Shown here: one piece after another, positions 1,382 through 18,325 of the stretch | How positions within the stretch are numbered: position 1 is the first letter of the stretch | Layout of the letters: each line of letters opens with the position of its first letter | Translations under genes and position numbers: made by a program | Source of the DNA: Promethearchaeota archaeon | GTDB taxonomy: Archaea > Asgardarchaeota > Lokiarchaeia > Sigyniarchaeales > SOKP01 | Reading direction: 5' to 3' | Length of the DNA: 64,000 nucleotides | Assembly: GCA_048940925.1 (NCBI GenBank) | Contig: JBHLOC010000025.1 | Span: 10,907 to 74,906 of the forward strand | Notes under the pieces: generated by a model | What the model was told of the DNA's origin: nothing | Database searches by the model: none | What the model saw: only the letters and a program-made list of their open reading frames with translations

Positions 1382-2632
1382 TTATAACCAACCTCTAAGC
1401 CGCATAGCGTTAATAACACGCTCAACAGCAATAATATATGCTCCCATTCTATTATGAGTGCTAAATTTATTTGCTTGTTCTACAGTAGAACGATAAGCGC
1501 GCGTCATTACTCTATCTAATGCCTCAAAAACTTCAGTTTCTGTCCAAAAGTAACGATAATAACCTTGAACCATTTCAAAATAAGATACAGTAACCCCTCC
1601 TGCGTTACACAAAAAGTCAGGAATAACAATTATCCCCTTTTCAAAGAGAGTTGTATCAGCATCTGGTGTAGTTGGTCCATTTGCTAATTCTGCAATAATT
1701 TTAGTATTTATATTATCAACATTATTTCTTGTTATGACATTTTCAAGTGCTGCAGGTACTAATACATCACATTCTAATTCCAACAATTCTTCATTTGTGA
1801 TATCCTTTGTCCCTTTTGCTCCCACAACTGATCTTGTCTTTTCTTTATGTTCAGCAGCCATATAAGGATCTATCCCCCCTTCATTATAGATACCTCCTTT
1901 AGAATCAGATACTGCTATGACTTTGCAGCCAAACTCATCATTTAATAGTTTTGCAGCCCATGAACCAGCATTACCATAACCTTGAACTACTACTTTAGCC
2001 CCGTTTAAGTTAAGTCCAATATCTTTTGCAGCTTCTCGTATAGCAAATACTCCTCCTTTTGCTGTTGCTATTGATCTTCCAGCGCTACCTCCCAATGGTA
2101 AAGGTTTACCAGTAATTACAGAAGGAGCATGCCTACGGACAATTTTTTCATATTCATCTTGCATCCATGCCATTATTTGAGGATTTGTATAAACATCTGG
2201 TGCAGGAACATCTATATTGGGTCCTATAAAATCAGCAAGTTGTCTAATATAATTTCGGGCAAGACTTTCAAGCTCTCTATTACTCATAGCTTTTGGATTG
2301 CATATTATTCCTCCTTTAGCTCCACCAAGAGGAATATCCACACATGCAGTCTTCCACGTCATCCAAGCTGATAGTGCTTTTACTAATGAAGCACTTTCAT
2401 CTGGATGCCATCTTATTCCGCCTTTCATTGGGCCTCTAGCAGAATTATATTGACTCCTGAAACCCTTAAATGTCTTTATCGAACCATCATCCATTTTCAT
2501 AGTTATTTTTATTTCTACAAACCTTTCAGGTTCACTTAAAGCATTATAAATTTCACTATCATATCCACTAATTTGACATGCATCATAGAGTTGTTTTTGG
2601 CTAATCTTAAAAGGATCCAACTCTTCACTCAT
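1382..2632 (-). CDS. gdhA: Glutamate dehydrogenase (Glu/Leu/Phe/Val dehydrogenase family)
   Basis: [32 protein letters not shown] and [11 protein letters not shown] motifs. The ATG at 2632 (MSEE) follows a GAGTGA SD-like motif; the ORF track starts at 2653. Confidence 0.93.
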
Positions 2633-2873
2633 CTTAAATTTCACTCTCGTCAATTATACCAATAATAAATTTGAATAATTTTCAATTTCAGGTATATAAA
2701 AGATAATTATTCTGAATAAATTTGTATTTTTTATTATTTAATTTGATTAATAATTTATGATATAAAATAATAGCAATAAATCTTTTCTATGGGAAAGATT
2801 TGGGAAATTAGAATTTCGGATGTTAAAAGATTGTAATGATTACAATAACCAAGGTCTTAAATTTAAATTATAT

Positions 2874-5618
2874 TTAGCAACTATGTTGATTTTCGTCTAA
2901 TCTGAATTTATGACTCAAATATTCGTCTATAGCTATTGCTGCTTTTTTTCCTCCTCCCATAGCTGAAATAACAGTGGCAGAGCCTGTAACTATATCTCCC
3001 CCTGCATAGATACCTTCTAAATTAGTATTACTATTTTCATCAGTCTCAATATATCCCCATTTATCAAGCTTTAATTCTGGAAGTGATTTAATTAATATCG
3101 GATTAGGAGTAGTGCCTATAGCTATTATGACAGTATCTGTTTCTATGGTATATTCAGAATTTTCAATTGGTATCGGTCTACGACGGTCAGATTCATCAGG
3201 TTCACCTAAACGCATTTTAATAACCTCCATTTCTTTTACAGATTCATTTTTATCTCCTATGATCTTTTTAGGATTAGTTAAAAATAGAAATTCAATTCCC
3301 TCTTCAATAGCATGATGATATTCCTCTCTTCTTGCTGGCATCTCATATTCAGACCTCCTATAAACAACTATTACTTTTTTTGCTCCTAATCGTTTAGCAA
3401 CCCTAGATGCATCTAACGCAGTATTTCCTCCACCAATAATAGTTACAATTTCACCTACCTTAATTGGGGTGTCATATTCAGGAAATCTATAGGCCTTCAT
3501 TAAATTGGCTCGTGTGAGGAATTCATTTGCTGTTAGAACCCCATTAAGAGTCAATCCTGGAATTTTGGGAAACATAGGAAGTCCAGCACCTACCCCAATA
3601 AAAAATGCTTCAAATCCCAGTTGCTTTAATTCTTCTAAAGTTAGAGTTTTCCCTATAATAGAATTATAATGCATTTTCACATCTAACATTTTTAATGTTT
3701 CAATCTCTTCCTTTACAATTTCTTTTGGTAATCTAAATTCTGGGATACCATATGCCAATACTCCTCCTCCCGTATGAAAAGCCTCAAATATTGAAACATC
3801 ATAACCTCTCATAGCAAGTTCTCCAGCGCAAGTTAAACCAGCGGGTCCAGCTCCTATAATAGCGACTTTTATATTTTTTGGGGATTGACAATCAGGACAT
3901 TCTTTTAATTGGTTTTTCCTTTCCCAATCAGCAATGAACCTTTCTAAATATCCAATAGCAATAGGCTCATCAAGATTATTTAATAAACATCTTTCTTCAC
4001 ATTGAATTTCTTGTGGGCACACTCTTCCACAAATAGCCGGCAATAAATTATATTTCTTTATTGCACGAATTGCTTCAATAAATTTCTCTTCTTTTAGCAA
4101 TTTTATAAATTTGGGGATATTTATATTAACAGGGCATCCATCAACACATTGAGGATATCCACATTGTAAACATCTATGAGCTTCTAATTTTACCATTTCT
4201 GGCGTTAAACCCTTAGGTACTTCATGAAAATTTTTTACTCGTATACTAGGGTCTTGTTCAATCATTTTTGGCCTATATATTTCCTTAAAGATTTTTTGCT
4301 TTGATTTTGCTATTCTTTTAAGAGATTGAAAATTATTACTATCCTCCATTATTTGTTTGTATTCAATTAGTTGAAGATCAATAGCCTTTTGGAAGATATC
4401 AGCACCTTTTTTGGTTCTTATAATAACTGTTGACCAACCGGGTTCAGACCCGATCGAACCGACCGAAATATCTGCGTGTTCTGAAGTAAGATCATCACAA
4501 AAGTAACATGCTAACCTACTATATTTTTTAATTTCATTTACAGGTATAGTATAAATAGAATTATCTTTATGAAAAACAAAAAAGCGTCCTTTATCGATAT
4601 CCATTTTTTTAATATCATTAGGAGAGAGTTGAAATTCTGCTTTCAGAAGAGACTTAATTTGATCATAATTAAATGATTCCATGCAGAACAATCCTATTTT
4701 TAGAATAATATTTTGATAAAAAGAGTTATTCAAAGGATAAAGCATTGTCTTCTTAAGGGCTTTCATCATGCAAGGTGTTCCGACTACGGCGATCTTTTCA
4801 TAATTCTTAGAAGAATTCAGAATTCTTAGGTTAGGAGTATTAGTATATTTGGTGCCAGAAGTTATTAACAAGTCTTTTTCATTGTCAACCATAACGGGTA
4901 GAGGTTTATGTGGTTCGTTAGAAACACTAACTGCTAATGCAGCATCAATCAAATTTTCTCGAAAAGCGGTTTTAAGTAATGTTGTAACAATTCCTCCATT
5001 TTGTGCATTTTTTTTAATTTGATTATCATTAGTCTGTGCTGTATAGATTTCAGAAAAATAATTTAATTGTTCAGAAAATTTAACATCTATATCTTTATCC
5101 TCTCTTAATCTTTTTAGATTTTTTGGAAAGAAGGATCTTGGGCAACAAATAAAGCATAAGCCACAATTAATACATACTTCTTCTTTTATATCAAAAGAAG
5201 TCCCCATATGATGAATTGCATTGACAGGACAAATAGAATCACATAATCCGCATCCACAACATAAATTTTTATCTCTAATTATTGATACATTAGGAAATAA
5301 CCCTTTATTCTCATTTTGCTCTATAAATTTTTGAAAAAATCTTGATTGTTTACCCAGAAATTTTAAACAGCCTAATTCTTTTAAATATTCTATATTACAA
5401 ATTAAAGATTTTTCTGTTATCCCTAATTTTTCCTTTAATTTGGGAATATCTATTGAACCAATTTTTTTTATATTTTCTAAAATTTTTTGTCGCTCTCTTT
5501 CTGCTTGAGAGAGGAGTTTTATGAATTCATTAAATTCCTTTTCATTATATCTTTCTGTTTTTATAATCTCATCTTTATTATCAAGGAAAACTCTAATTAG
5601 AGGTGATTGTATTTCCAT
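2874..5618 (-). CDS. Fusion protein: wHTH-like + 2x[4Fe-4S] + FrhB/FdhB (F420-binding) domain + NfnB/SudA/GltD-like flavoprotein
   Basis: Ferredoxin motifs CCGCGLC..CP and CINCGLC..CP. FrhB motifs QNGGIVT, GTKY, VGTPC, IGLFCME, DISVGSIG..GWSTVIIRT. NfnB motifs RCLQC..CP, CGRVCPQE.QCE, GAGPAG, YGIPEFRLPK, GGGNTALD. Probable start is ATG 5618 (ORF track 5633). Confidence 0.88.
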   Translation of the reverse strand: MEIQSPLIRVFLDNKDEIIKTERYNEKEFNEFIKLLSQAERERQKILENIKKIGSIDIPKLKEKLGITEKSLICNIEYLKELGCLKFLGKQSRFFQKFIEQNENKGLFPNVSIIRDKNLCCGCGLCDSICPVNAIHHMGTSFDIKEEVCINCGLCFICCPRSFFPKNLKRLREDKDIDVKFSEQLNYFSEIYTAQTNDNQIKKNAQNGGIVTTLLKTAFRENLIDAALAVSVSNEPHKPLPVMVDNEKDLLITSGTKYTNTPNLRILNSSKNYEKIAVVGTPCMMKALKKTMLYPLNNSFYQNIILKIGLFCMESFNYDQIKSLLKAEFQLSPNDIKKMDIDKGRFFVFHKDNSIYTIPVNEIKKYSRLACYFCDDLTSEHADISVGSIGSEPGWSTVIIRTKKGADIFQKAIDLQLIEYKQIMEDSNNFQSLKRIAKSKQKIFKEIYRPKMIEQDPSIRVKNFHEVPKGLTPEMVKLEAHRCLQCGYPQCVDGCPVNINIPKFIKLLKEEKFIEAIRAIKKYNLLPAICGRVCPQEIQCEERCLLNNLDEPIAIGYLERFIADWERKNQLKECPDCQSPKNIKVAIIGAGPAGLTCAGELAMRGYDVSIFEAFHTGGGVLAYGIPEFRLPKEIVKEEIETLKMLDVKMHYNSIIGKTLTLEELKQLGFEAFFIGVGAGLPMFPKIPGLTLNGVLTANEFLTRANLMKAYRFPEYDTPIKVGEIVTIIGGGNTALDASRVAKRLGAKKVIVVYRRSEYEMPARREEYHHAIEEGIEFLFLTNPKKIIGDKNESVKEMEVIKMRLGEPDESDRRRPIPIENSEYTIETDTVIIAIGTTPNPILIKSLPELKLDKWGYIETDENSNTNLEGIYAGGDIVTGSATVISAMGGGKKAAIAIDEYLSHKFRLDENQHSC

Positions 5619-5619
5619 T

Positions 5620-6504
5620 TTAAGGAGTTTCACCTTCCATCTTTTCCATTGCTTTACATTTTTGTTTATATCGTTCTAATGAAATTTTTTCTTGCTCAAC
5701 AAACCTATTAGCACGACTTAAAAGATTATCAAAATCTACTACATGACCATCAACATCTGGTCCATCAACACAAGCAAAAAGTATTTCTCCAGTTTTAGTT
5801 GAGAATCGACATCCTCCACACATCCCTGTTCCATCAATCATTATTGTGTTTAAAGATACATAAGTTTTTACCTTAGGTAATCCTTCAATTCCACTAGTGA
5901 GAATAGAAACATTTTTCATCATAATTAATGGACCAATTGCGATAACAACACTAATTTTTTCTTTTTCTAACAAGTCTTTTAGAGGTTTAGTTACAAAGCC
6001 CTTTATTCCCTCAGTCCCATCATTTGTACAAGTAATCACTCTATCACTAACGACATTCATTTTGTCTTTCCAAAATAATAATTCACGTGTTTTTGCACCT
6101 ACAATTGATATAACCTTATTACCTGCATTTTTCAATTCTTTTGCCTGTGGAAAACATTCAGCAATACCCACTCCCCCTCCAACTATAACAATGGGATTTT
6201 CATATTTTTCAATATGAATTTTATTTCCAAGTGGTCCAATCACATCTAAAATTTCATCATCGACATTCTTATGTGAAAGCAATAGTGTAGATTTTCCAAC
6301 TACTTGAAAAACTATAGTGATAATTCCTTTTTCGCTACTATAATCGGCAATAGTAAGAGGAATTCTCTCACCGGTCTCATTTATTCGAATTAATACAAAA
6401 TTACCAGCAAATGCCTTTTTCGCAATTAAAGGGGCCCTTACATCAATTTCAAATAAAGTTCCACTATTTCCAAGCTGAATTTTTTTTAGTATCTTGTAGG
6501 GCAT
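5620..6504 (-). CDS. nfnA: NfnA/SudB-type FAD/NAD-binding [2Fe-2S] subunit
   Basis: GERIPLTI, GPLG, GGGVG and MIDGTGMCGGCR..ACVDGP (Asp/Cys-ligated 2Fe-2S). Abuts the NfnB-containing fusion gene. Confidence 0.88.
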   Translation of the reverse strand: MPYKILKKIQLGNSGTLFEIDVRAPLIAKKAFAGNFVLIRINETGERIPLTIADYSSEKGIITIVFQVVGKSTLLLSHKNVDDEILDVIGPLGNKIHIEKYENPIVIVGGGVGIAECFPQAKELKNAGNKVISIVGAKTRELLFWKDKMNVVSDRVITCTNDGTEGIKGFVTKPLKDLLEKEKISVVIAIGPLIMMKNVSILTSGIEGLPKVKTYVSLNTIMIDGTGMCGGCRFSTKTGEILFACVDGPDVDGHVVDFDNLLSRANRFVEQEKISLERYKQKCKAMEKMEGETP

Positions 6505-6604
6505 AAGCAATTTTCAAAAATTTTAAATTTATTTTGGATAAATCCATTTTCTAATTGATGGAATATTTCAATGTAAAAAAAGAGTATTATTAAATATATT
6601 GGTT

Positions 6605-6622
6605 ATGGGAATTACTTCCCCT
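6605..6622. promoter_or_regulatory. Palindromic operator candidate, copy 1 (ATGGGAATTACTTCCCCT), between divergent nfnA and guaA
   Basis: GGGA-N6-TCCC core. Near-identical sites occur at 12148 and 18308. Confidence 0.55.
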
Positions 6623-12147: not shown

Positions 12148-12165
12148 ATGGGAATTGTTACCCAT
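12148..12165. promoter_or_regulatory. Palindromic operator candidate, copy 2 (ATGGGAATTGTTACCCAT)
   Basis: Lies upstream of the glutamate-synthase-like remnant and just downstream of a minus-strand TTTATAT box. Confidence 0.55.
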
Positions 12166-12396: not shown

Positions 12397-13230
12397 TTAA
12401 ATTAGTTGACTACAGTAATTCATAGCAAAAGGTCTTTTAGAAATTGGTTTAATAGCTTTAAAAGGTTTTTTTCTAATAATTTCGAGGGAAATATTGAATG
12501 TTTTACAGAAATCTTTTATATAAAAGTCGATTTCTTTCTGTTCTTCTTCTAAAAGTTCAGAAACTTGTGCCCCAACACCTAACCAACCTTCGACATTTTT
12601 ATCCGTTCTAAGATAAATAACGCCTCTATGAATCCCTGTTCCTAATTCTGTTCCACAAATAGGCTGTTGATTCTCAATAATTGTGCCATTTGGTAAGAAT
12701 TTTAGACCAAGCACAATAATTTTACCACCTGCCATATACTCGCCCAAGAAATCTTTAGCTGTGCCACCGATTATTAAAATAGGAAATTGATTTTTATATT
12801 CTTTCATATGGATACCAACTCTATAACCCACGTCTCCCTTGACATAGATTTTTCCACCTCTTGAAGATAATCCGATAACATCCCCTCCATCTCCATAAAT
12901 TATTAATGTTCCTTCATTCATTGTATTTCCTGTTTGATCCTCACAATTCCCAATAACACTAATTTTAGGACCATCCATAAAAATTCCTAAATCATTACCT
13001 GGAACTCCATTAATAATTATTTCTACATTTCCTTGTAAAGCTGCACCTATAAATCTCTGCCCACAAACATTGTTTAATACAATATTTTTACAATTATTTT
13101 TAACGGCATCATTGATCATAGAATTTAATTCTCTATAGTCAATTGGTTCTCCATTTGGGGCAGCATTTATCTCTAGAGGTTCTATTCTATCCATTTCAAA
13201 ATTTTTAACTTCAATATCATTCATTATCAT
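12397..13230 (-). CDS. gltB3: Glutamate synthase GXGXG (domain 3) subunit
   Basis: GQRFIG, GVPGNDLG, GNTMNEG, GYRVGIHMK and FLGEYMAGG beta-helix repeats. ATG 13230 follows a GGTGA SD. Confidence 0.9.
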   Translation of the reverse strand: MIMNDIEVKNFEMDRIEPLEINAAPNGEPIDYRELNSMINDAVKNNCKNIVLNNVCGQRFIGAALQGNVEIIINGVPGNDLGIFMDGPKISVIGNCEDQTGNTMNEGTLIIYGDGGDVIGLSSRGGKIYVKGDVGYRVGIHMKEYKNQFPILIIGGTAKDFLGEYMAGGKIIVLGLKFLPNGTIIENQQPICGTELGTGIHRGVIYLRTDKNVEGWLGVGAQVSELLEEEQKEIDFYIKDFCKTFNISLEIIRKKPFKAIKPISKRPFAMNYCSQLI

Positions 13231-13234
13231 AGTT

Positions 13235-14755
13235 TTATTCACCAGCATGTTTTACTCCTAAAATATCCGCAATATGCGGATTTGGACCAATATACCTTAA
13301 TCGGTCTCTATTTGAGCGAAGAGATTCCACAGAATCTATTCCCATCGCTCCTAAAACTTCCTTTAATTCTTCATTCCAAGAATGAAATAAATTTATGATT
13401 CTTTTTTTTGAAACATCAATATCTAATCTCTTCACTAAAATTTCTTGCTGTGTTGCGATACCCCATGAACAAAGACCTCTAAAGCATTGCTGGCAGACTC
13501 GACATCCCATTGCTATTAATACCGGTGTACAACACATAGCTATATCTGCCCCTAATGCAATAGCTTTGATCAAATCGGCAGAATATCTAATAGAGCCCCC
13601 AGCAATTAATGTTATCTCTTCTCTCAATCCTTCTTGCCTTAACTTTTCATCAACAACTGCAATGGCTATCTCAATAGGGATCCCTGCATGATCTCTAATA
13701 ATTCTTGGCGCAGCACCAGTACCCCCTCTAAAACCATCAATTGTTAGGAAATCGGCACCACCTTTAACTATTCCTATCGCAATTGGGGCTGAATTATGTA
13801 CTGCCGCAATCTTTACTCCCACAGGAACCTTATATCTTGTTGCTTCTTTTAATGCTGCTATTAATTGAGCTAAATCCTCTATTGAATAAATATCATGATG
13901 AGGATATGGAGATAATGCATCACTTCCCTGTGGAATCATACGCGTTTGCGAAATTAAATTGCTTACTTTTTCACCTGGGAGATGGCCACCGTGCCCAGGT
14001 TTTGCTCCTTGCCCTATTTTGATTTCTAGACCTGCTGCATTATGTAAATAATTAATATCCACACCAAATCTTCCTGATGCGACTTCAGTAATAATATTTG
14101 GAGCATATTCATAAAAATCTGGATGTAGACCCCCTTCTCCTGAACCTGCTACAATATTTAATTCTTTTACTGCTTGATATATTGCTTGACATGCATTGTA
14201 GCTAATTGACCCTAAAGACATATGACCAACCATAATTGGCATATCTATTTCAAAATTAGGAAAGAGATTTGTCTTTAATGAAATATCGTTAATATCATCA
14301 TAATCACCTGAAAAATTAAGCTGCTTTAACTTTCGTCCAAATATTATTTTAGTTTCTATTGTCTCTCTCAATGGATCAATACTAGGATTTGTGACTTGGC
14401 AAGCGTCAAGAAGTAGGTCATCAAAGATGGATCTAATCGGTCTATCATTGCCCGTTGCTGAAAGTAAAACGCCTCCATTTCCTGATTGAGCCCAAATTAT
14501 ATTTCTAATTTTTCTAGTATAGTTACCATGTTGGGGTAAATAAGCATCATTTTGAACAATGCGTATCGCCTTTCCTGGGCACATAACTACACATCTTTGG
14601 CACGCTACGCATTTATTGTCATCAGCAATTATTCGTTCTCCATTGAAATATAGTACTCCAAATGAACAATTATTTACACATCTTTTACATTTCTTACAAT
14701 TCTCTTGATTAATATTTACTCTATAATAAGGGAGAATCTCATGTACTATAGCCAA
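13235..14755 (-). CDS. gltB2: Archaeal glutamate synthase FMN-binding subunit with N-terminal 2x[4Fe-4S]
   Basis: CKKCKRC..C, CVACQRC..CP, MSLGS, GEGG, EVASGRFG, EIKIGQGAKPGHGGHLPGEKV, SPYPHHDIYSIEDL, DGFRGGTGA and C..CQQC..GLC. Confidence 0.93.
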   Translation of the reverse strand: MAIVHEILPYYRVNINQENCKKCKRCVNNCSFGVLYFNGERIIADDNKCVACQRCVVMCPGKAIRIVQNDAYLPQHGNYTRKIRNIIWAQSGNGGVLLSATGNDRPIRSIFDDLLLDACQVTNPSIDPLRETIETKIIFGRKLKQLNFSGDYDDINDISLKTNLFPNFEIDMPIMVGHMSLGSISYNACQAIYQAVKELNIVAGSGEGGLHPDFYEYAPNIITEVASGRFGVDINYLHNAAGLEIKIGQGAKPGHGGHLPGEKVSNLISQTRMIPQGSDALSPYPHHDIYSIEDLAQLIAALKEATRYKVPVGVKIAAVHNSAPIAIGIVKGGADFLTIDGFRGGTGAAPRIIRDHAGIPIEIAIAVVDEKLRQEGLREEITLIAGGSIRYSADLIKAIALGADIAMCCTPVLIAMGCRVCQQCFRGLCSWGIATQQEILVKRLDIDVSKKRIINLFHSWNEELKEVLGAMGIDSVESLRSNRDRLRYIGPNPHIADILGVKHAGE

Positions 14756-14757
14756 TT

Positions 14758-15951
14758 TTATACCTCCATTTTAGATAAATTATGTTTTATCAATGGTATT
14801 TCAAGACCATTTTTAATTAATCCTTTCCCCTGTTTAGCTATAACAACAGATCCACTCTTCGGATGCCAAATATCAAGCAAATCGAATTTATCGTCATCAA
14901 GCATCAACCTTCTAAAGGAGGATTCTTCACTGCTCATATACACAGTATTCTTATCTTCACTAATTCCAACTACTAAAGGCCGTAGTTTTTTTCTATCAGA
15001 TAATCCTATCATAGTAGGAATAGGATCTGAATAACCAACAACAATAGAAAACGGTCCATTCAACATAGCACTTCTATAAGTTGCTCTTATATTTTTGTAT
15101 ATTACTTGAGTTTTATTATCTAATTTTTCAATTTCTTCATATAATGGTGGTGCTAAAGCAATAGCAACGAGAGGTATTGGGATTTTATGTTTACGGCATA
15201 ATAAGTCAAACAGATACGCGATAACTTCTGTGTCAGTAAAAAGAGTACATTTATATCCAAACGAATCTAAGTACCTTTTATTTGTTCCATAGGATGTTAT
15301 CTCACCATTATGAACCACCGAACAATTTAATAGATTAAATGGATGTGCCCCGCCCCACCATCCAGGAGTATTTGTTGGAAATCTTGAATGTGCCAACCAC
15401 ATATACGCTTTATATTCTGAAATTTTATAAAAATCTGCAATTTCATATGACCAGCCATTACCTTTAAAAACACCCACATCTTTGCCAGATGACATCACAA
15501 ATGCATTTTCAATATTAGCATTGATAGCCATTACTATTTGGACTATTTTTTCATCGTTATCTTCGTTATTATAGTTTTCTGGATCAAAGAACACTCTCCA
15601 GATTATCGGAGGATTGATCACCTCAGAATGCATCTTTGTTGGTATAGGCTCCGATTTGATTATTTTACCATTTTTTTCCAAATATTTTAGGGTATTTGAT
15701 TTTGCATTTTCATTGTCAAAAAGAAAATGAAATGCATAATAATTTTTATATTCAGGATAAATTCCGTATCCCGCAAAACCCGCACCAAGACCATTTTCTC
15801 TCTCCTTCAAAATACATAACATTTCAATTACTTTATCCCCTGAAACTCTATTCCCATCAGTGTTTATAAAACCAGATATTCCACATCCATCAAATACTCG
15901 CTGATTTCTATATTGTGCGGGTAAAGATGTATAATTTTCCCATCTCATCAC
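14758..15951 (-). CDS. gltB1: Glutamate synthase class II (Ntn) glutamine amidotransferase subunit
   Basis: Short leader then DG-CGISG, ERENGLGAG, HSRFPTNT, GGAHPF, HNGEI and DTEV. Confidence 0.92.
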   Translation of the reverse strand: MMRWENYTSLPAQYRNQRVFDGCGISGFINTDGNRVSGDKVIEMLCILKERENGLGAGFAGYGIYPEYKNYYAFHFLFDNENAKSNTLKYLEKNGKIIKSEPIPTKMHSEVINPPIIWRVFFDPENYNNEDNDEKIVQIVMAINANIENAFVMSSGKDVGVFKGNGWSYEIADFYKISEYKAYMWLAHSRFPTNTPGWWGGAHPFNLLNCSVVHNGEITSYGTNKRYLDSFGYKCTLFTDTEVIAYLFDLLCRKHKIPIPLVAIALAPPLYEEIEKLDNKTQVIYKNIRATYRSAMLNGPFSIVVGYSDPIPTMIGLSDRKKLRPLVVGISEDKNTVYMSSEESSFRRLMLDDDKFDLLDIWHPKSGSVVIAKQGKGLIKNGLEIPLIKHNLSKMEV

Positions 15952-15954
15952 TTT

Positions 15955-17313
15955 TCACTCTCTCATGTTTGAAGAATCCGGTTTTATGTTTTCATTCTCT
16001 ATAATATTAAATAGTTTTTTCAAATCTCCAACTTTAGGTTTATTAGTTTCTAACCCTACTCTATTACGGGCTGATTTTGATAATAAACCAATAATTCCTT
16101 TCTGATAAAAGGAATAGAATTCACGTGCATATCCTTTTGTAGCATATCCTCGCTCTGTCGCGAGATTACGTAAAATTGAAAAAATTTCAATCATACCAAC
16201 TCTCATAGGACAAAGCTCATAACATAAATAACAATCAAGACACAGCCAAATTGACTGATCAGATATGACCTCTTCAACTCTTCCTTCAAGGAGCTTATAG
16301 ACAATTTCGCTTGGTCTGAATTCGGTCAATTTTGATATGATACAGTCATCGTCACATGCTCTACATGAATAACATTTGAATAAGAAATTAGGATCGAAAT
16401 ATTTTCTTATTTCCCTATTTTTTGCTTTAATATCTTCAATTTTTTTAAAAAGTGATTTGACTTGCGTTCTGTGGTACTTTTTCATCAATTCTCGAATATT
16501 AATCTCTAGGGCAATACATAATAATTCTGAATAATATAACACGGGAATATCGTAATTACGATCTTCTTTTTTTAAATCTTGTTGCAAATGATCAAATTGA
16601 ATAAAACACTGAGGACAACACACAACAATACAATCAATCTTATTCTCCTTCATACTTAATAATTTCGCATTAATTATTTCTAATGATAAATTTGGACTCC
16701 CAGCTCTCCCAAGACTTCCTCCACAACATTCCATTTTAAATTCATAATCAATACTTTGAGCACCTAAATCTCTAATCAAATCATCAAATAAAGTTGGCTC
16801 AAGTGGATCATCAGTCTGTACTTTATTGCTTGGTCTAAGGAAGTGACAACCATAAAAAACCGCAATCCTTAACCCCGTTAATGGAAACTTTAAATTATCT
16901 TTTATCGTCTCCCTTCTGAATTTGAAAACGAATTCGACCAAATGATAAATGTTACAATCTCCACGGACTTTAAGATCAATTTTATCCAAATATTCATTGA
17001 TCTTCTCTTTTAAATGATGATCTTCTTCAATTTCACCTTTCACTTTTTTGAAGGTTGTAAAACACCCATTACAAGGAGTTAAAATAGCTTTATTCTCCAT
17101 CTCAGCAAGACTAAGATTTCGAGCTGCCGTTAAATAGAACAACAATTTATTAGAATTTTTAATCCCATTCGGCTCAGGACAACAAGAAAACTTTGAATTT
17201 TCAGTAAAAGCAATCCCTAAATAATCTAATACATTTCTTATTGAAACTTCTATAAAAGGAAGCCGATATGTTATAGTGCATCCTGGGAATAAGACTATCT
17301 CATGATTAATTAT
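15955..17313 (-). CDS. HdrB-HdrC fusion (two CCG domains + [4Fe-4S] domain)
   Basis: FPGC..CCPEP..TPCNGC, FYGCH..CCG..CCPQC, then CYSCRAC..C and CLDCYLC..CP. The first CCG half lies upstream of the ORF-track TTG (17145). The frame is open back to ATA 17313, behind a GAGGT SD. Confidence 0.85.
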   Translation of the reverse strand: MINHEIVLFPGCTITYRLPFIEVSIRNVLDYLGIAFTENSKFSCCPEPNGIKNSNKLLFYLTAARNLSLAEMENKAILTPCNGCFTTFKKVKGEIEEDHHLKEKINEYLDKIDLKVRGDCNIYHLVEFVFKFRRETIKDNLKFPLTGLRIAVFYGCHFLRPSNKVQTDDPLEPTLFDDLIRDLGAQSIDYEFKMECCGGSLGRAGSPNLSLEIINAKLLSMKENKIDCIVVCCPQCFIQFDHLQQDLKKEDRNYDIPVLYYSELLCIALEINIRELMKKYHRTQVKSLFKKIEDIKAKNREIRKYFDPNFLFKCYSCRACDDDCIISKLTEFRPSEIVYKLLEGRVEEVISDQSIWLCLDCYLCYELCPMRVGMIEIFSILRNLATERGYATKGYAREFYSFYQKGIIGLLSKSARNRVGLETNKPKVGDLKKLFNIIENENIKPDSSNMRE

Positions 17314-18307: not shown

Positions 18308-18325
18308 ATGGGAATCAGATCCCAT
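18308..18325. promoter_or_regulatory. Palindromic operator candidate, copy 3 (ATGGGAATCAGATCCCAT)
   Basis: Immediately downstream of a minus-strand TTATATATAA TATA-like box, at the head of the wHTH / Zn-ribbon / hdrBC / gltB run. Confidence 0.6.

Follow-up and report, generated by a model that had tools for sequence, protein, structure and literature searches.

Which electron carrier does a lokiarchaeial NfnAB-type complex use when its large subunit is fused to an F420-reductase module? This question is raised by a gene pair in a stretch of 64,000 nucleotides (nt), hereafter the window, from a Promethearchaeota archaeon (GenBank assembly GCA_048940925.1, contig JBHLOC010000025.1, positions 10,907 to 74,906 of the forward strand; GTDB lineage Archaea; Asgardarchaeota; Lokiarchaeia; Sigyniarchaeales; SOKP01). 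Flavin-based electron bifurcation has its simplest model in Nfn, and to our knowledge all characterised Nfn forms use ferredoxin as the low-potential partner. In the window, nfnA is followed by a gene whose product carries a ferredoxin domain and an FrhB-type domain ahead of NfnB. We favour, with moderate confidence, the reading that NfnA and this fusion protein would catalyse 2 NADPH + NAD+ + F420 <-> 2 NADP+ + NADH + F420H2. The fused module probably exchanges ferredoxin for F420 as the third redox partner of NfnAB.

The locus consists of three successive open reading frames (ORFs) on the minus strand, at 5620..6510 (296 amino acids, aa), 2874..5633 (919 aa) and 1382..2653 (423 aa). The junction between nfnA and the large gene reads ...CCT TAA A ATG GAA..., and for this reason the large gene likely starts at the ATG at 5618 (M6), one base past the nfnA stop codon, which gives a protein of 914 aa. 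M6 was also the first residue of the consensus of 67 homologues. Residue numbers of the fusion protein given here follow the ORF numbering from GTG 5633. The start of nfnA is likely the ATG at 6504, while the mechanical ORF opens at TTG 6510. A first-pass annotation made from the letters of this DNA had described nfnA as abutting a gene of about 915 aa, with gdhA next on the same strand, and both statements were borne out; its end coordinate, 6504, coincides with the likely nfnA start. The gdhA product matched GdhA_Arch with 567 bits, as an archaeal-type glutamate dehydrogenase. The tRNA and Rfam scans of the window returned no features.

The domain order of the fusion protein was examined with Pfam profiles. 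Fer4 types (4Fe-4S dicluster families) matched residues 118-170, followed by FrhB_FdhB_N at 196-272 (68.7 bits, profile positions 1-77 of 78), FrhB_FdhB_C at 279-429 (157.8 bits, positions 2-148 of 150), Fer4_20 at 465-575 (138.5 bits) and Pyr_redox_2 at 589-893 (138.2 bits). These profiles agree with the annotated order of a 2x[4Fe-4S] domain and a complete FrhB domain N-terminal to a complete NfnB/SudA domain. Among the 67 full-length homologues, the cysteines of the two CxxCxxCxxxCP motifs in the ferredoxin domain (C125/C128/C131/C135 and C154/C157/C160/C164), those of the FrhB cluster (C288/C317/C376/C379) and seven of the NfnB clusters (C488/C491/C496/C500 and C539/C545/C549) were invariant, and C535 was kept in at least 90%. 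The NADPH 2'-phosphate motif Y758-R759-R760 was invariant as well, and the NfnB cluster cysteines and this YRR motif all align with Thermotoga maritima NfnB. Ligand sets for five [4Fe-4S] clusters are kept across the 67 sequences. Loss of F420- or FAD-binding residues had been named as an objection to the annotation; the residues that bind the clusters and the signature motifs of FrhB, NfnB and NfnA proved invariant.

FrhB homology extends to about residue 447 and NfnB homology begins at 456, leaving a linker of fewer than 10 residues, which therefore would hold the FrhB unit beside the cluster-bearing N-terminal domain of NfnB. The AlphaFold model of the fusion reached a pLDDT of 80 and a pTM of 0.69. 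The N-terminal domain (residues ~8-110) was predicted as helical with a pLDDT of 87.5, and its last three helices superposed on an Lrp/AsnC helix-turn-helix (HTH) with Z 5.4 and a root-mean-square deviation of 1.8 A over 51 residues. The Lrp/AsnC matches were tied with unrelated helical ones, Foldseek E-values were about 1, the best Pfam E-value was 0.006, and the language-model matches were similarly weak. The annotated HTH-like segment thus stands as a confidently folded domain, while its likeness to an HTH is weak, and we use "HTH-like" only as a loose description.

What the N-half resembles was determined by sequence and structure comparison. Its best match (residues 121-446) was to residues 18-339 of 8riu_B, with 189 bits, and the structures aligned with Z 37.3 over 339/370 residues. 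Next to it stood FwdI (8rja_E; 168 bits, Z 34.5), FrhB of Methanosarcina and Methanothermobacter (6qgr_B and 3zfs_C; about 180 bits each, with Z 27.7 against FrhB structures: 6qgr_B; 279/291 residues of 6qii_B) and Fsr (7npa_A; 150 bits, Z 30.8). The ferredoxin domain of the fusion aligned with those of 8riu_B, 8rja_E and Fsr, and motifs common to FrhB, e.g. QxGG, GLFCMESF, ADISVGSIGS and GWSTVIIRT, were intact. The protein in 8RIU_B is the zeta subunit of the CO dehydrogenase of Ca. Ethanoperedens; two clusters are bound in its ferredoxin domain, and one cluster plus FAD in its F420-reductase domain (PMC11493965). Through it, an enzyme that normally depends on ferredoxin is linked to F420, and assays showed reduction of F420 by the complex (PMC11493965). 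Such ferredoxin-FrhB subunits rewire both CO dehydrogenase and Fwd of Ethanoperedens from ferredoxin to F420 (PMC11493965).

The C-half (residues 456-919) matched T. maritima NfnB (4ylf_B) with 566 bits and Pyrococcus furiosus NfnI-L (5jca_L) with 528 bits, compared with 277 bits for the true glutamate synthase small subunit GltD (6s6s_G). In the AlphaFold model it superposed on 5jca_L with Z 40.4 over 451 residues. By these scores the C-half is a true NfnB, closer to NfnB than to GltD, and pieces of gltB lie in a separate operon, both of which set the protein outside the GltD/FGltS family. It also exceeded the cut-off of the TIGR01316 'gltA' model (572 vs 471.75), a model which presumably describes the Pyrococcus SudA/NfnB-like protein. 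The small subunit exceeded the cut-off of PRK06222, the sulfide/dihydroorotate-dehydrogenase-like FAD/NAD protein (350.6 vs 220 bits), and scored 287 bits against P. furiosus NfnI-S (5jca_S), 249 against T. maritima NfnA (4ylf_A) and 150 against NfnII/Xfn-S. On this comparison NfnA is of the NfnI rather than the NfnII type. It keeps DGTGMCGGCR...FACVDGP, the motif of the Asp(Cys)3 [2Fe-2S] cluster, whose chemistry in the Nfn small subunit has been described (PMC8097209). There is one nfnA in the window's genome, the neighbour of the fusion. A second, unfused nfnB (contig C85:45143-46510) encodes 455 aa with 63% identity to the NfnB domain of the fusion; it lacks an adjoining nfnA, and its product may share the single NfnA or work alone.

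To find out how widespread the fusion is, 5.8 billion clustered proteins were searched, which gave about 90 full-length clusters of 900-935 aa with 57-82% identity, located on contigs as long as 384 kb. Clusters with a named source came from metagenome-assembled genomes of Lokiarchaeota/Promethearchaeota and from the metagenome of Loki's Castle sediment. Of 400 Asgard genomes, 53 carried the fusion at full length and 6 in contig-truncated or shortened form; these 59 are all members of the family to which the window belongs (135 genomes; genera g1, g2, g5, g7, g9, g11 and g12), and two copies were found in 5 genomes. The N-half had no match in the 265 genomes of the other 32 Asgard families, where only the NfnB part matched. 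An exhaustive HMMER scan of 1.84 billion representatives at 50% identity gave one full-length match, all others starting near residue 440-590. With about 90 full-length clusters and at least 53 independent genomes, an assembly chimera, a worry attached to the annotation, was rejected, and the fusion is real. Forms of 550-635 aa (FrhB_C + NfnB) were considered as split or shortened genes and rejected as start-calling or contig-end artefacts: in P0105 a frame open for 930 codons spans the whole fusion, so that its start was mis-called, and the apparent intermediates of G204 and G263 are cut by contig ends.

In 20/20 loci examined, nfnA lies directly upstream of the fusion. Directly downstream, gdhA was found in 11/20, with guaA divergently transcribed; a gene of the isocitrate dehydrogenase family (icd) takes the place of gdhA in loci L056 and L083, and in L060 an MtdA-like gene (Mpt_N) precedes nfnA. 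The GdhA, isocitrate dehydrogenase and MtdA-like families are commonly NADP-using dehydrogenases, and these neighbours support the link to NADPH balance proposed in the annotation. Downstream of nfnB, three tandem gdhA paralogues were observed in L048, L057 and L077 (genomes G225, G183 and G182), one about 78% and two 40-45% identical to the window's gdhA, which is a single copy.

At the equivalent locus of five sister genomes (G207, G189, G185 and G182 of the window's genus, and G238 of genus g12), an unfused nfnB of 462-467 aa without the FrhB part was found, in the order pepF-guaA<>nfnA-nfnB-gdhA-citMHS. Because these sister genomes hold unfused nfnAB-gdhA at the equivalent place, the FrhB module looks like a swap of redox partner. 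In the NfnB-domain tree, all 22 fused sequences fell into one clade (SH-aLRT 90), sister to the clade of unfused syntenic NfnB. Three unfused sequences nest within the fused clade as apparent secondary losses; a fourth, L073, is a fusion truncated where its contig ends. A free-standing 498-aa paralogue with HTH-like, ferredoxin and FrhB domains, encoded on contig C41 of the window's genome, aligned with fusion residues 13-447 at 41% identity. By this alignment, the fusion is a pre-existing HTH-like-ferredoxin-FrhB protein joined to NfnB, and the HTH-like domain was not added at the fusion, since the free-standing paralogue already has it. The suggestion in the annotation that a tethered ferredoxin and FrhB may replace soluble ferredoxin gains support from the plain nfnAB of the sister genomes and from the Ethanoperedens precedent (8RIU_B, PMC11493965).

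The window's genome was searched for F420 biosynthesis genes, a check proposed along with the annotation, and four genes gave matches above the curated cut-offs: cofE/fbiB (264 bits, in a 473-aa frame) adjoining cofD (303 bits), and cofG (382 bits) adjoining cofH (464 bits). Such result is consistent with a report that Lokiarchaeota encode the whole F420 pathway (PMC8498797). The genome also contains F420-dependent Mtd (353 bits) and 16 FrhB_C matches; searches of the genome for bona fide Mer and FrhA found only sub-threshold paralogues. None of the 135 family genomes has an Fno (F420H2:NADP+ oxidoreductase) above the curated cut-off. Most genomes of the genus carry a divergent, full-length Fno-like ORF (71-113 bits), and with this ORF below the cut-off an absence of Fno is at most a tentative argument.

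In canonical Nfn, the bifurcating FAD of NfnB is reduced by NADPH and sends one electron to NAD+ by way of the [2Fe-2S] cluster and FAD of NfnA, and the other to ferredoxin by way of the proximal and distal [4Fe-4S] clusters (PMC8097209). In the proposed mechanism, NfnA and the 914-aa protein would form an Nfn-type iron-sulfur flavoprotein complex in which the covalent ferredoxin-FrhB unit stands in for soluble ferredoxin on the low-potential side of NfnB. The two ferredoxin-type clusters would accept the electron from the distal NfnB cluster and pass it to the FrhB cluster and FAD, and after two rounds the FrhB FAD would hand a hydride to F420. The full path would run F420(H2) <-> FrhB FAD <-> FrhB [4Fe-4S] <-> two ferredoxin-domain [4Fe-4S] <-> distal and proximal NfnB [4Fe-4S] <-> bifurcating FAD <-> NADP(H), with the high-potential branch leading from the bifurcating FAD through the [2Fe-2S] and FAD of NfnA to NAD(H). 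The net reaction would be near equilibrium and so reversible in vivo. In this way three hydride pools would be coupled, and the NADPH of GdhA, Icd or MtdA-like enzymes would be balanced against F420 instead of ferredoxin. Four elements of this scheme are inferred: that F420 is the substrate, that the two halves are in electronic contact, that bifurcation is obligate, and in which direction the complex runs in the cell. We suggest, tentatively, that this could be a flavin-based electron-bifurcating (or confurcating) enzyme whose three substrates (NADPH, NADH and F420H2) are all two-electron hydride carriers, with no diffusible one-electron carrier.

The regulatory sequence and the nitrogen-related genes around the locus were then considered. 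The palindrome ATGGGA-N6-TCCCAT, allowing at most one mismatch, had 3 matches in the window against 0.23 expected, at 6605-6622 upstream of nfnA, at 12148-12165, and at 18308-18325 upstream of the operon with Zn-ribbon, HdrBC-like and glutamate synthase (GOGAT) genes. In the whole genome (4.8 Mb) there were 5 such sites, of which three are intergenic, all in the window, and fit the longer form ATGGGAA-N4-TTCCCAT with at most one mismatch; the others lie inside ORFs, and a genome-wide regulon was rejected on this ground. The core GGGAA-N4-TTCCC is kept 110-130 nt upstream of nfnA in the window and in 8 related fused loci, and also in 3/5 unfused syntenic loci, making 12 genomes including that of the window; it is followed by a conserved TTTTTTTAGATTnAATTAT..CTTCAATTAG block. 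The palindrome therefore marks the locus, with its glutamate/nitrogen neighbourhood, and not the fusion, as it is kept at unfused loci too. It is a candidate operator of a glutamate/nitrogen regulon. PutA-like autoregulation, with the HTH-like domain binding the palindrome, was rejected: the palindrome also lies upstream of nfnA in genomes with only the unfused gene and is absent from a second class of fusion loci, and the HTH-like domain predates the fusion in the free-standing paralogue. The GOGAT of the window, at 12397-17145 on the minus strand, is split into three genes (GATase, ferredoxin + FMN domain, GXGXG); its operon begins with an HdrB/HdrC-like CCG + Fer4 protein and contains no GltD.

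Several points weigh against an F420-coupled Nfn complex. F420 use and bifurcation are predicted from sequence for the whole family, and the F420 site of FrhB-type domains has no residue-level definition (PMC10229431), so that F420 specificity is not readable from sequence. The N-half missed the frhB equivalog cut-offs (TIGR03289, 235.6 vs 331.5; PRK09325, 267.5 vs 269), and its neighbours are nfnA and gdhA, not frhA or frhG, which places it outside FrhB proper. The FrhB superfamily also holds non-F420 enzymes, and one of these, HCAR (5dqr), matched at 42 bits. The presence of cofH in 116/135 family genomes, with or without the fusion, does not discriminate the fusion. For the arrangement of the domains relative to one another, the model gives a pTM of 0.69. 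Finally, F420, NADP and NAD have nearly equal standard potentials; bifurcation is therefore not energetically needed to move electrons from NADPH to F420, and obligate coupling would bring no obvious benefit. That coupling is unneeded among nearly isopotential carriers speaks for an alternative in which the complex works as an NAD(P)H:F420 oxidoreductase that does not bifurcate, comparable in function to Fno but large, and exchanges electrons between F420 and either pyridine nucleotide with no obligatory coupling of three substrates, or acts also as a reduced-ferredoxin:F420 oxidoreductase through its exposed ferredoxin domain. Soluble FpoF has been reported as a reduced-ferredoxin:F420 oxidoreductase. 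P. furiosus NfnII/Xfn provides a non-bifurcating Nfn-like pair (PMC8097209), and the lack of an above-cut-off Fno throughout the family fits such a role as well. We nevertheless regard this alternative as unlikely, given that NfnA is NfnI-like and not NfnII-like, that the NfnB core has conserved ligands and is close to the bifurcating T. maritima enzyme, and that nfnA is kept at all 20 fusion loci examined; the Fno-like ORF carried by most members of the genus may also mean that they already have a small Fno.

It is also possible that the FrhB module does not use F420 and instead reacts with another acceptor or donor, stores electrons internally, provides a docking site or senses redox state, while the HTH-like domain contacts protein or DNA. 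The non-F420 members of the superfamily, the narrowly missed frhB cut-offs and the HTH-like domain without an explained role are in keeping with this, and no cofH match was found in 7 fusion-bearing genomes, three of which are 94-99% complete. However, proven F420 enzymes matched four to five times more strongly than HCAR (180-189 vs 42-45 bits), the motifs common to FrhB are intact, and the genome has F420 biosynthesis genes and F420 enzymes. The palindrome also occurs at loci without the fusion and so is not the target of its HTH-like domain. Together these results make a non-F420 module quite improbable. A further proposal would make the complex the electron-input unit of the nearby split GOGAT, delivering electrons from NADPH, through a GltD-like domain, or from F420H2, through a ferredoxin-FrhB unit like FGltS-alpha, to the ferredoxin domain of the FMN subunit. 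That operon lacks GltD and its FMN subunit carries an N-terminal 2x[4Fe-4S] domain, the 18-bp palindrome is common to the nfnA and GOGAT promoter regions and absent from other intergenic DNA of the genome, and GOGAT genes lie 4-6 kb away in the related loci L050 and L055. Ferredoxin-FrhB proteins have also been proposed as alpha subunits of an F420-dependent GOGAT (PMC3448663). Against it, the C-half is NfnB and not GltD and is always paired with NfnA, a subunit that GOGATs lack; the operons are distinct, about 6-6.8 kb apart; the second class of fusion loci has no GOGAT, gdhA or guaA nearby; and the sister genomes have unfused nfnAB in the equivalent neighbourhood. The common palindrome and the conserved neighbourhood are the only ties to GOGAT supply, and we consider a dedicated input unit very improbable.

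The proposed F420-coupled Nfn complex was compared with known systems. T. maritima NfnAB (4YLF/4YRY) and P. furiosus NfnI (5JCA) share with it both subunits, encoded by adjacent genes, NfnB domains aligning with Z 38.7-40.4, the cluster ligands, the Asp(Cys)3 motif and YRR. In contrast to them, the Loki NfnB has a 455-residue N-terminal extension (HTH-like, 2x[4Fe-4S], and FrhB with FAD), which adds three clusters and a third flavin, and its predicted third substrate is F420 instead of soluble ferredoxin. The zeta subunit of Ca. Ethanoperedens thermophilum ACDS (8RIU_B) and FwdI (8RJA_E) have the equivalent unit of a two-cluster ferredoxin and an FrhB with one cluster and FAD, and follow the same logic, a plug-in by which an enzyme dependent on ferredoxin is rewired to F420; in Ethanoperedens the unit is bound to CO dehydrogenase or Fwd as a subunit of its own, whereas in Loki it is fused in cis to NfnB and carries the extra N-terminal HTH-like domain. 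Fsr (7NP8/7NPA) and FpoF/FqoF likewise have an N-terminal ferredoxin-FrhB unit, an F420H2 dehydrogenase, fused to or docked on a catalytic partner, but the partner is a siroheme reductase or a membrane complex and not a bifurcating NAD(P)H flavoprotein. The HdrA-NfnB insertion fusions of ANME-1 (PMC9012536) and the NfnABC/StnABC transhydrogenases (9BOV, 8OH5, 9N5U) also combine a GltD/NfnB-like module with further redox modules, namely HdrA or NuoF/HydB-like ones, and none has an FrhB domain. Fno has a predicted role in common with the Loki complex, linking the F420 and NADP pools, but it is a small, unrelated enzyme whose hydride transfer is direct and involves neither flavin nor clusters.

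In the full-text literature on this architecture, on Asgard and lokiarchaeial redox enzymes and on related families, with subscription-only papers outside the scope, no description of an FrhB-NfnB fusion was found. The nearest published cases are the ANME-1 HdrA-NfnB insertions (PMC9012536), the putative F420-dependent GOGATs (PMC3448663), Fsr and the F420-reductase subunits of Ethanoperedens. The building blocks and the plug-in principle are known, and the combination of FrhB with NfnB is not known to have been described. If the favoured reading is true, an F420-wired Nfn would be a new reaction class for the Nfn family, would explain how F420 is linked to the NADPH and NADH pools in F420-rich Lokiarchaeia, none of which in this family reach the Fno cut-off, and would extend to Asgard archaea a plug-in F420-reductase principle so far shown for ethane-oxidising Euryarchaeota only. 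Such an "F420-Nfn" would let an Asgard lineage run amino-acid and C1 metabolism on F420 and not ferredoxin. Fused and unfused versions share one locus within one genus; under this reading they would amount to a natural experiment on how a cell switches its low-potential currency, and the pair offers a clean experimental comparison. The features of the locus are collected in Table 1.

Table 1. Features of the nfnA-fusion-gdhA locus (feature, window positions, strand, basis or remark).
nfnA, NfnA/SudB-type small subunit (FAD, NAD(H) site, [2Fe-2S])	5620..6504	-	PRK06222 match
N-terminal helical, HTH-like domain of the fusion	5286..5618	-	residues 6-116; pLDDT 87.5
2x[4Fe-4S] ferredoxin domain of the fusion	5079..5285	-	residues 117-185; Fer4 matches, invariant Cys
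Complete FrhB-type F420-oxidoreductase domain (FAD + one [4Fe-4S])	4284..5078	-	residues 186-450; both FrhB profiles
Complete NfnB/SudA-type domain (two [4Fe-4S], bifurcating FAD, NADPH site)	2874..4268	-	residues 456-919 + stop codon
gdhA (glutamate dehydrogenase)	1382..2653	-	220 nt downstream of the fusion gene; ELFV_dehydrog + ELFV_dehydrog_N
Palindrome ATGGGAATTACTTCCCCT (core GGGAA-N4-TTCCC)	6605..6622	.	between the divergent nfnA and guaA, about 100 nt ahead of nfnA

Further FrhB combinations were observed in the window's genome. On contig C55:64465-66933 (L078:3466-5934) lies a gene for an 822-aa protein in which a GltD/NfnB-like module (Fer4_20 + Pyr_redox_2 at 194-603) is inserted inside an FrhB domain (FrhB_N 75-146, FrhB_C 667-739). 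This gene adjoins NiFe-hydrogenase small-subunit-like and polyferredoxin/HdrA-like genes, and its product (821-aa representative P0171) is a second, independent combination of FrhB with a GltD-like module. On contig C45:9214-11040 (L079:3215-5041), a 608-aa protein joins ferredoxin-FrhB to a PyrK/NfnA-like domain (C-terminal DHODB_Fe-S_bind) and is encoded downstream of a TPP-enzyme gene, the product of which is a candidate subunit of a 2-oxoacid oxidoreductase. The 16 FrhB_C matches, with at least two FrhB fusions besides that of the window, suggest that the prokaryotes most closely related to eukaryotes have an F420 electron-transfer network that is broad and still uncharted.

The 498-aa paralogue on contig C41 belongs to a three-gene cluster (C41:146646-150536, L080) with a second FrhB (370 aa) and an HdrB/HdrC-like CCG/Fer4 protein (418 aa), which resembles the HdrBC-like lead gene of the window's GOGAT operon. 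Adjoining or near nfnAB operons, genes were also seen for proteins of about 918 aa (L062:15031-17784 in G241 and L068:2355-5117 in G255; 918-aa representative P0201), in which a 2x[4Fe-4S] domain at the N-terminus occurs together with a GltD-like module and two CCG (HdrB-like) domains. Directly downstream of gdhA in the window, at 707-1234 on the minus strand, lies a gene for a Ras/Rab-family small GTPase of 175 aa (Ras, 167 bits), and a small GTPase gene occupies the equivalent place in G225 and G182.

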